Assembly: GCA_001871115.1 (NCBI GenBank)
Contig: MNUR01000129.1
Span: 3,869 to 67,868 of the forward strand
Origin: Elusimicrobia bacterium CG1_02_56_21
GTDB taxonomy: Bacteria; Elusimicrobiota; Elusimicrobia; Elusimicrobiales; UBA9959
Reading direction: 5' to 3'
Length of the DNA stretch: 64,000 nucleotides
The notes under the pieces were generated by a model. The model was not told where the DNA came from and ran no database searches. It was given only the letters and a program-made list of their open reading frames with translations. Every line of letters begins with the position of its first letter. The stretch's first letter is position 1. Positions 49,498 through 50,783 of this stretch are shown here, piece by piece. Made by a program: the position numbers and the translations under genes.

Positions 49498-50493
49498 ATG
49501 TCTGCACGAAGCCGAAAAATACTAATGATGCCGGGCATGACAAGTTCCACAACTTGCGGCTTTGAACTTATTTCAGCTGAGTACACCGGCGCGGACAGAC
49601 TTGCGGCCTGGAAAGCCCGCTGGGGAATTAACAGGATGGCTTACAGGATAAAGCCCGGACTCTACGCCCTCGGCGGACCTTCCGCGTCCTCCCCCGTTTT
49701 CGCCTCCGCCAATTACAAGCTGAGCTTCGACGCCCTCCGTACGAACCTGAAAGGGATCAGCGCCTGGCTGCTGGTCCTGGACACCAAAGGAATAAATGTC
49801 TGGTGCGCGGCAGGGAAGGGCACTTTCGGCACGCTGGAACTGGCCCGCTCCATCCGGGAAAGCGGCCTGGAAAAACTGGTAAACCACCGCTCCGTCACCC
49901 TGCCCCAGCTGGGCGCCCCCGGCGTCAGCGCCCACAGGGTAAAGGCTTATACCGGGTTCTCAATCACATACGGCCCGGTCCGGGCTGAAGATATCCCGGA
50001 ATTTATAGCCTCTGGCTGCAAGGCCTCCCCGGAGATGAGAAAAGTAAGGTTCGGCTTTGCGGAAAGGATAGTTCTTGCCCCGGTGCAGTTAACCCAGTTC
50101 GGCAGATACCTGGTCCCGGCTTCGGTAATTTTACTCCTGTTCGGGCTTAAAGCCGACTCGCTCCTGACGGCGGGAGCCCTGCTGGCCGGCACGGTTCTTG
50201 TTCCCGCCCTGCTGCCCTGGCTGCCGGGCAGGAGTTTTGCCGTTAAAAGCGCGGCTGCGGGGCTGGCGACAACGACGGTTCTGTCCGCCTTCCTCCCTAT
50301 GCCTATATACCAGTTCTGCGCCCGCGGACTGATTTATTCCGCGGCAGCTTCTTTCATAGGCCTGGATTTCACAGGCGCCTCGACATACACCTCCTTATCC
50401 GGGGTTAAAAAAGAAATGCGGGCAGCCCTGCCGGCGCAGGCCCTTGCCCTTCTCGCGGGGCTTCTGCTGCTTTTATTTGGGAGATTTTTATGA
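49498..50493 (+). CDS. hgcA: mercury methylation corrinoid protein HgcA
   Basis: Diagnostic cap-helix motif NVWCAAGK (nt 49795..49818), flanked by ANYKLSFDALR and LPQLGAPGV. C-terminal multi-TM domain. The start codon is uncertain (49498, or Met 10/11/14). Confidence 0.85.
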   Translation: MSARSRKILMMPGMTSSTTCGFELISAEYTGADRLAAWKARWGINRMAYRIKPGLYALGGPSASSPVFASANYKLSFDALRTNLKGISAWLLVLDTKGINVWCAAGKGTFGTLELARSIRESGLEKLVNHRSVTLPQLGAPGVSAHRVKAYTGFSITYGPVRAEDIPEFIASGCKASPEMRKVRFGFAERIVLAPVQLTQFGRYLVPASVILLLFGLKADSLLTAGALLAGTVLVPALLPWLPGRSFAVKSAAAGLATTTVLSAFLPMPIYQFCARGLIYSAAASFIGLDFTGASTYTSLSGVKKEMRAALPAQALALLAGLLLLLFGRFL

Positions 50494-50783
50494 GCCTGAA
50501 ATACCTGAGCGGGGTGACAACTCTCAAACTAAACCCGGATAAATGCACAGGCTGCGGAATGTGCGTGAATGTCTGTCCCCATGCCGTGTTCATTATTAAG
50601 ACCCGCAAAGCGGCAATTACCGACCCTGACCTGTGCATGGAATGCGGCGCTTGCGCCCTGAACTGTTCCTTTGAAGCGATTACAGTTAAAAAGGGCGTAG
50701 GCTGCGCCCAGGCAGTAAGGAACGGCTTCCTGCGCGGCACCGAGCCCGACTGCGGCTGCGGCGGCGATTCATCCTGCTGCTGA
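50490..50783 (+). CDS. hgcB: mercury methylation ferredoxin HgcB
   Basis: ATGA overlap with hgcA. Two CX2CX2CX3C motifs (CTGCGMCVNVCP, CMECGACALNC), an extra Cys in GVGCAQ, and a C-terminal CGCGGDSSCC vicinal pair. Confidence 0.85.
   Translation: MSLKYLSGVTTLKLNPDKCTGCGMCVNVCPHAVFIIKTRKAAITDPDLCMECGACALNCSFEAITVKKGVGCAQAVRNGFLRGTEPDCGCGGDSSCC

Follow-up and report, generated by a model that had tools for sequence, protein, structure and literature searches.

The gene pair hgcAB serves as a marker for predicting where neurotoxic methylmercury can form, and the locus described here raises the question of whether such a pair, found on a contig of an uncultured bacterium, encodes a true mercury methylase and, if so, in what host and under what control. 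The DNA concerned is a stretch of 64,000 nucleotides (hereafter the window) from contig MNUR01000129.1 of Elusimicrobia bacterium CG1_02_56_21, in which an initial annotation had assigned two adjacent open reading frames (ORFs) at 49498..50783 to hgcA and hgcB. We estimate at close to nine in ten the probability that these ORFs form an intact, unfused hgcA-hgcB operon on the chromosome of an uncultured Elusimicrobia bacterium of Crystal Geyser, encoding a predicted mercury methylase whose expression would be tied to an arsenic-type metalloregulon. The identity of the pair is based on its membership in profile hidden Markov model (HMM) families, the alignment of the cap cysteine, 54 invariant columns, the modeled membrane helices, a fold match to the enzyme of Pseudodesulfovibrio mercurii ND132, the cysteine pattern of HgcB, the ATGA coupling of the two genes and clade support.

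Both ORFs lie on the plus strand exactly where they had been placed, hgcA (the corrinoid protein of the methylase, 331 aa) at 49498..50493 and hgcB (its 2x[4Fe-4S] ferredoxin partner, 97 aa) at 50490..50783, and all of the peptides that had been quoted for them (DRLAAWKARWGINRMAYRIKPGLYALG, ANYKLSFDALR, NVWCAAGK, LPQLGAPGV, GVGCAQ and a terminal SSCC) were found in the translations. The hgcB ATG (50490–50492) overlaps the hgcA TGA (50491–50493), forming the ATGA at 50490..50493 that had been reported for the pair. In four other Elusimicrobia loci the start codon of hgcA lines up with the ATG of the window gene, and a fifth (L019) has a gap at this point. On the NCBIfam equivalog model for HgcA (NF040863, HgcA_corrinoid; cutoff 275) the hgcA product scored 405.5 bits (E 1.5e-121) over profile positions 4–324 of 325, consistent with the claim that it matches HgcA along its whole length, and the hgcB product scored 123.4 bits (E 2.4e-36) over positions 1–93 of 93 of the HgcB model (NF040864; cutoff 99). 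Based on these E-values and scores over cutoff, the matches to the HgcA and HgcB models are far beyond chance. The best 120 HgcA homologs listed were likewise all canonical HgcA.

The same searches bear on whether the pair belongs instead to the fused HgcAB-like proteins, a family not shown to methylate mercury. These proteins have related corrinoid and ferredoxin modules, and the model for them (NF043039) did give a partial match, with HgcA scoring 198.9 bits and HgcB 56; however, both values are under the cutoff of 285 and far under the scores on the HgcA and HgcB models. In addition, the fusion proteins are single polypeptides, whereas HgcA and HgcB are encoded separately in the window, a stop codon ending the first ORF and the ATGA overlap leading into the second. 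We therefore consider it extremely improbable that the window pair is a fused-type paralog.

A second alternative is that a carbon-fixation corrinoid iron-sulfur protein (CFeSP; AcsC/CdhE type, Wood-Ljungdahl) had been misread as HgcA. Speaking for it are the Pfam result for HgcA, in which the generic CdhD corrinoid domain alone was matched (PF03599, residues 50–168, E 1.6e-12), and a PDB sequence search that found no solved HgcA structure and returned only CFeSP large subunits over residues 50–171 (2h9a_A, E 6e-12). However, the alignment spans only ~120 residues, and on the acetyl-CoA synthase gamma/CFeSP model NF003195 the protein scored 67 bits against a cutoff of 306, over profile positions 322–445 only. 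The CFeSP large subunit (AcsC/CfsA; 2h9a, 4djd) shares with HgcA a homologous cobalamin-binding domain of Rossmann-like fold, in which a cap region covers the corrin ring, but it differs from the window protein in having N-terminal [4Fe-4S] and TIM-barrel domains, in having no membrane helices where HgcA has five, in carrying a threonine for the cap cysteine and in having AcsD, MeTr and ACS as partners. No acsD, ACS or CODH gene was found among the ~47 window ORFs scanned.

The cap-helix motif NVWCAAGK (residues 100–107), which fits the consensus N(V/I)WCA(A/G)GK, reads directly from the sequence at 49795..49818, with the TGC codon of Cys103 at 49804..49806, as the initial annotation had stated. 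In the PDB search alignment, and also in a MAFFT alignment of 81 HgcA sequences and two CFeSP domains, Cys103 is situated opposite Thr374 of the C. hydrogenoformans CFeSP (2h9a_A), the cap region reading LDTKGINVWCAAGKGTFGT in HgcA and VDTDGTSVLTAWAAGKF in CFeSP. A cysteine in place of the CFeSP threonine is the substitution that sets HgcA apart from CFeSP (PMC7305189). NVWCAAGK is present in 80 of 84 HgcA sequences taken from related loci. Moreover, an alignment of 49 HgcA sequences (that of the window and 48 diverse ones, down to 48% identity) has 54 invariant columns, W102, C103, G106, K107 and 50 more, and the HgcA of the window keeps every one of these residues.

For the phylogeny we used neighbor joining (NJ) on corrected p-distances, rather than maximum likelihood, with 126 columns of the corrinoid domain, 200 bootstraps and a root on two CFeSP sequences; the tree contained HgcA and CFeSP. 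CFeSP was split from all HgcA in 200 of 200 bootstraps, and the distance of the window HgcA to CFeSP was 1.5–1.9, whereas its distances to the other HgcA proteins did not exceed 0.59. The window protein fell in a clade of eight Elusimicrobia sequences with support of 198/200 for the corrinoid domain and 200/200 for the full-length alignment. The separation from CFeSP, the cysteine at the threonine position and the domain content together refute the carbon-fixation reading, which we regard as barely conceivable.

The second ORF has the full set of features expected of HgcB, in agreement with the architecture that had been proposed for it: Pfam identified Fer4 domains, the two CX2CX2CX3C cluster motifs occupy residues 19–29 and 49–59, and further cysteines are found at Cys72 (in GVGC), Cys88, Cys90 and the vicinal C-terminal pair Cys96-Cys97. 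Among 77 other hgcB genes, both motifs are present in 76, the cysteine of G-x-G-C in 73 and a CC within the last six residues in 62. On these comparisons the ORF pair is an intact, unfused and canonical hgcA-hgcB.

An AlphaFold2 (AF2) model of HgcA, built from the 49-sequence alignment with no cofactor included, had a mean predicted local distance difference test (pLDDT) score of 84.6 and a predicted template modeling (pTM) score of 0.78. Residues ~23–171 (49564..50010) form an alternating strand/helix domain with pLDDT mostly >85, assigned as the Rossmann-like corrinoid-binding domain from the model and the CFeSP sequence and fold matches; residues 1–20 have low confidence. The transmembrane domain (50077..50481) is composed of five helices in the model (residues 194–214, 218–241, 247–263, 270–293 and 300–328), which are hydrophobic and sparsely charged according to Kyte-Doolittle hydropathy and counts of charged residues, and which follow a Lys/Arg-rich loop, bearing out the multi-helix membrane domain predicted for the C-terminal half. 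The cap region is poorly modeled in spite of being the stretch most conserved in the HgcA family. The best Foldseek match in the PDB was the ND132 HgcAB entry 9a0b_A (E 1.5e-18, 43% identity over 320 columns), itself a computational/integrative model and not an experimental structure, followed by the CFeSP entries 2ycl, 4c1n, 2h9a, 4djd and 9fzy.

The closest experimentally validated mercury methylase is the HgcA/HgcB of P. mercurii (Desulfovibrio desulfuricans) ND132, a member of a different phylum, which has the same two-gene architecture, domain plan and five transmembrane helices and passes the same NCBIfam equivalog models. Its cap cysteine, C93, corresponds to C103 of the window HgcA, and its HgcB residues C73, about 12 residues beyond the second cluster motif, and C94/C95 correspond to C72 and C96/C97; these ND132 cysteines are needed for methylation (PMC7305189; PMC11588087). 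Every residue and domain needed for the ND132-type methylation steps is present in the window pair. The mechanism and essential residues of the ND132 enzyme have been described (PMC11588087, PMC7305189), and by orthology the two [4Fe-4S] clusters of HgcB would deliver low-potential electrons that bring cobalamin to Co(I). Methylation of this cobalamin by S-adenosylmethionine would then give methyl-Co(III), for which the cap cysteine is the lower axial thiolate ligand, and the methyl group would be passed to Hg(II) to yield methylmercury. As proposed for ND132, the flexible Cys-Cys tail of HgcB and its mid-chain cysteine may hand in Hg(II) and take out CH3Hg+.

The initial annotation had remarked that the surrounding genes did not look like those of the classical carriers and that the host might be a poorly characterized lineage. 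Both remarks were apt: the window is chromosomal DNA of an Elusimicrobia bacterium, a lineage already listed among hgcA carriers (PMC7438021). The host is an uncultured member of the Elusimicrobia in groundwater of Crystal Geyser, a CO2-rich aquifer. An ENA assembly of run SRR1534154, BioProject PRJNA229517, has a 153,678-bp contig that encodes a protein identical to the window HgcA, and a published data statement identifies PRJNA229517 as Crystal Geyser samples; in all, three assemblies yielded the identical protein. Assignment to the Elusimicrobia is based on the HgcA clade, on Obg matches and on synteny. The named closest HgcA homologs among the matches listed are from Elusimicrobia, at 66–78% identity. 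The Obg of the window (31789..33189) has a best non-self match of 88%, and the named Obg matches among the best 120 were all Elusimicrobia, Elusimicrobiota or Elusimicrobiales. The hgcAB flanks are syntenic with loci in seven Elusimicrobia metagenome-assembled genomes (MAGs) at 70–88% nucleotide identity. Since the window carries murC, rsmA, dnaG, rpoD, obg, anmK, cysK, cysE and argF, the locus is chromosomal. The GC content of hgcAB (0.56–0.59) is near that of neighboring genes, and its third-position GC (GC3) is 0.66–0.67 compared to 0.64–0.83 in the neighbors. A recent foreign origin of hgcAB is thus unsupported by composition, as both values are host-like.

Divergent from hgcA is a minus-strand unit with the gene order arsR-hesB-arsC-acr3. 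The first gene, arsR (49031..49435, or with a start at 49417), encodes an ArsR/SmtB metalloregulator that scored 72.2 bits on NF033788 (cutoff 55). It is a winged-helix HTH_5 protein whose ELCVCE motif, the thiolate site in helix alpha-3, aligns with the metal site ELCVCD of CadC. In its fold and its ELCVC(D/E) motif it resembles the ArsR/SmtB repressors with alpha-3 thiolate sites, R773 ArsR and pI258 CadC. Unlike these, it has an additional Cys-rich C-terminal tail (PCCGP...CVIGCNC), and its candidate operator has the ars unit on one side and hgcAB on the other. An arsR of 70–75% identity is at the same position in five Elusimicrobia loci.

The second gene of the unit (48689..48979) encodes a small HesB/IscA-like protein that scored 26.5 bits on Pfam Fe-S_biosyn (cutoff 26.3) and was below cutoff on TIGR00049, NF038090 and TIGR01911. 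It has vicinal cysteine pairs in EGCCGPS and in a C-terminal DCCH and may act as a metal(loid) chaperone; five of seven related loci keep its gene at this place, between those for ArsR and ArsC. We also noted a weak match to the HesB-like selenoprotein family, of which it would be the cysteine version. The arsC gene (48256..48675) encodes a thioredoxin-type arsenate reductase of the low-molecular-weight protein tyrosine phosphatase (LMW-PTPase) fold, with 72.7 bits on Pfam LMWPc and 128.2 bits (E 2.2e-37) on TIGR02691, where it is under the cutoff of 174.3. The arsenite efflux permease, acr3 (47177..48256), scored 445.5 bits on TIGR00832 (cutoff 282.8). Adjoining acr3 is a gene (46213..47130) for a PhnD-like periplasmic protein of the phosphonate-binding family, which is found at the same position in six related loci at 58–69% identity and has no adjacent ABC permease or ATPase.

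This arrangement is characteristic of the clade: arsC and acr3 adjoin hgcAB in all eight of its members, and six of the eight also have the divergent arsR. Across all 83 hgcA loci compared, an Acr3 homolog was found in 28 and an ArsC homolog in 26 within 10 kb or the fetched flanks. The members of the clade include the HgcA proteins of MAGs GWC2_61_19, GWD2_63_28, GWB2_63_16, NC_groundwater_1302 and others, some of which are annotated as HgcA at NCBI. McDaniel et al. had listed Elusimicrobia as carriers of hgcA and had shown hgcAB with ars genes at its flanks (PMC7438021). Gionfriddo et al. described ArsR control of hgcAB in ND132 as well as many MAGs from Rifle IFRC groundwater and sediment with ArsR and ars genes by hgcAB (bioRxiv 10.1101/2022.10.17.512643). 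The ND132 arrangement is different, as its arsR2 is upstream of hgcAB and co-transcribed with it, with no ars genes nearby, whereas the arsR of the window is divergent and heads arsR-hesB-arsC-acr3; the ND132 regulator has also been described as atypical, whereas the window ArsR has the classical ELCVC metal site.

The divergent region between arsR and hgcA is 62 bp. In an alignment of this region from six Elusimicrobia loci, the block ATATATGCTATTATA(T/C)GCATAT, at 49416..49437 in the window, is invariant save for one Y position and one flanking base, and the remaining spacer is barely alignable. The block, a 22-nt palindrome (ATATATGCTATTATATGCATAT in the window), is an inverted repeat, ATATGC-N8-GCATAT, with arms ATATGC and GCATAT and an 8-nt spacer; the arms reach 8 nt in four loci. 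The other positions of the palindrome are L001 9931–9950, L002 5234–5253, L003 9924–9943, L006 9928–9947 and L019 9972–9991. It is unique in the window, where 0.05 matches are expected, and among the 83 loci it was confined to the five arsR-bearing loci and the three copies of the window itself, with one occurrence in each. Two related loci without a divergent arsR, L004 and L005, lack it.

A consensus scan predicted a sigma-70-like promoter for the arsR-hesB-arsC-acr3 unit on the minus strand at 49425..49453, with TTGACT as the -35 hexamer (49453..49448), a 17-nt spacer and TATAAT as the -10 hexamer (49430..49425), matching the consensus at 11 of 12 positions. The -10 hexamer sits in the center of the palindrome. 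Autoregulated ArsR/SmtB operators usually have this layout, with the -10 element inside a palindrome, and in repressors of this type the palindromic operator overlaps the promoter of the regulator itself, as is the case for the candidate operator of the window. Based on its conservation and position, the palindrome is most likely the ArsR operator.

We also scanned metagenome contigs for the 20-nt core of the palindrome, which was found at 43 loci. Homologs of the window hgcA are carried by 21 of these, and there the palindrome is at most 85 nt from hgcA, with arsR opposite wherever the contig reaches. The other 22 are in unrelated contexts, 21 of them in low-GC DNA and one (L122, GC 0.64) inside a longer unrelated palindrome, and they appear to be matches that an AT-rich 20-mer makes by chance. 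The palindrome was also considered as a general ars operator, and this was rejected: among the 43 metagenome loci, none was at an ars operon that lacked both hgcA and a remnant of it.

The tie between hgcAB expression and an arsenic-type metalloregulon is inferred from the divergent arsR unit and the clade-invariant palindrome in the short region between it and hgcAB. A more specific proposal is that in the Elusimicrobia clade a single palindromic operator would control both arsR-hesB-arsC-acr3 and hgcAB as one ArsR regulon, and that the ars-hgcAB block would be an exchangeable cassette recombining at a fixed chromosomal site. We offer this combined proposal tentatively, as a possibility with the odds clearly against it.

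The exchange part of the proposal comes from a comparison of the window with four short contigs, L002 (a contig of an Elusimicrobiaceae MAG), L004, L005 and L006. Identity to L002 is 95–97% for the cupin gene and for the ABC-2 efflux genes on its right, as against 72% for each of HgcA and HgcB, 70% for ArsR, 69% for the PhnD-like protein and 35% for Acr3. Across the contigs compared, HgcA identity to the window is 68–74%, while the ABC-transporter genes vary between 75% and 97%. There are two types of Acr3, ~35% identical to each other and 80–91% identical within type, and at least two types of ArsC, and the types occur in differing combinations among genomes. In addition, one copy of hgcAB in a relative (L126) has apparently decayed. 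These patterns suggest that the ars-hgcAB block (46213..52100) was exchanged among Elusimicrobia at a fixed site, which would fit them better than clock-like co-divergence. The efflux operon on the minus strand at 52474..59172 (TetR, a TolC-like outer membrane efflux protein, HlyD, two ABC ATPases and two ABC-2 permeases) is the best-conserved block of the neighborhood, with 95–97% identity to L002 in the permease and ATPase proteins compared and ~88% at the DNA level over the whole operon.

Among the related loci, the window alone has a 1.3-kb insertion between hgcB and the cupin gene. It contains two lineage-specific membrane ORFs on the plus strand (50799..51947), orf71 (71 aa; 50799..51014) and orf280 (277–280 aa; 51105..51947), which have no NCBIfam or Pfam family match and are absent from all 80 of the other hgcA loci. 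A search of 1.84 billion representative proteins gave one full-length relative of orf280 (57% identity), situated in an unrelated context, and one weak 57-aa match. As orf280 is a near-orphan that is absent from 80 other hgcA loci and has its relative elsewhere, we rejected it as an hgcAB-linked membrane partner or possible transporter. A link of either ORF to hgcAB is doubtful, but co-transcription with hgcAB is possible because the gaps are only 15 and 90 nt.

A relative of the locus on metagenome contig Ga0210017_1007877 (L126; positions 3176–4147) keeps arsR, the palindrome, arsC and acr3, but its HgcA is reduced to residues 263–308, with residues 1–262 lost, and there is a frameshift in its hgcB. 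If the assembly is correct, hgcAB has apparently undergone natural decay in this relative. L126 bears on the possibility that the pair is a true HgcAB ortholog selected for a part in the response to arsenic or soft metal(loid)s, such as the transfer of methyl groups to some other substrate, with mercury methylation as a side reaction. Such a role would be in keeping with the presence of arsC and acr3 by hgcAB throughout the clade and of the divergent arsR in most of it, with acr3 or arsC within 10 kb in about one third of the 83 hgcA loci, and with an operator-like palindrome common to the ars unit and hgcAB. It would also be in keeping with the greater As(V) sensitivity of an ND132 hgcAB knockout and the response of hgcAB to arsenic and S-adenosylhomocysteine (SAH) (bioRxiv 10.1101/2022.10.17.512643). 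However, an alternative substrate is not known, adjacency does not amount to co-regulation, decay can remove hgcAB from a locus that keeps its ars genes, as in L126, and ND132 itself has no ars genes by hgcAB. For these reasons we think an arsenic-related primary role unlikely, and we favor a mercury methylase under putative metalloregulation.

Several observations weigh against an active mercury methylase under ArsR control. The exclusion of the fused paralogs rests on HMM scores and gene architecture, the tree having covered HgcA and CFeSP. The cap region (residues 101–108; 49798..49821) has pLDDT <50 and is non-helical in the cofactor-free AF2 model; low confidence in this region is expected because the model was made without the cofactor, and the missing corrinoid is the likely cause. 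With regard to regulation, no plus-strand sigma-70-like promoter was found upstream of hgcA, either at the scan thresholds or by eye, and for this reason ArsR control stays putative for hgcAB itself. Finally, the palindrome is retained in L126, in which hgcA is deleted, and it may therefore serve only arsR and the ars genes.

The missing plus-strand promoter also bears on a further reading, in which the pair is intact in sequence but silent or non-functional, for example because cobalamin supply is missing or the genes are not expressed. The outright decay of hgcAB in L126 and the far greater divergence of HgcA than of the flanking genes are in line with this reading as well. Nevertheless, the ORFs are full length, all family-invariant residues are kept, the composition is host-like and the identical protein came from three assemblies, and we consider silence or loss of function quite improbable for the window pair.

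Other genes of the window fall outside this argument. A WD40 protein of the bacterial seven-blade type and several large TPR proteins, both kinds already pointed out in the initial annotation, and a protein that matches the MamQ model with a score below its cutoff are encoded at 24..635, 5212..6843, 10947..13331, 15293..17374 and 43722..44591; these WD40, TPR and MamQ-matching genes are unrelated to hgcAB.

Since both the lineage and the gene arrangement had been reported before, the assignment of the window pair is correct but ordinary. The Elusimicrobia lineage and the ars-hgcAB arrangement are already published, and the window pair adds one member to them; it is like the other MAG loci in that hgcAB adjoins arsC and acr3 and in having the palindrome found in the arsR-bearing loci, and unlike them in its 63–78% HgcA identity, the mixed acr3 and arsC types and its insertion of orf71 and orf280. 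Existing knowledge is accordingly unchanged by this locus. What the locus adds is a well-resolved chromosomal example of hgcAB from the Elusimicrobia, a phylum without an experimentally confirmed methylator, and because its 64-kb context is complete and the gene pair is intact, it is a good candidate for a heterologous test of a non-classical HgcAB. The regulation of hgcAB is poorly understood, and transcript levels are poor predictors of methylation; in this regard the palindrome provides a concrete handle on a possible metal(loid) regulation of these genes. If the proposed ArsR regulon is true, arsenite or some other thiophilic metal(loid) would be the signal that induces such groundwater organisms to form methylmercury. 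The palindrome, the mosaic structure of the locus and the relative with decayed hgcAB are modest additions through which both the regulation and the gene flow of hgcAB in this clade become testable.

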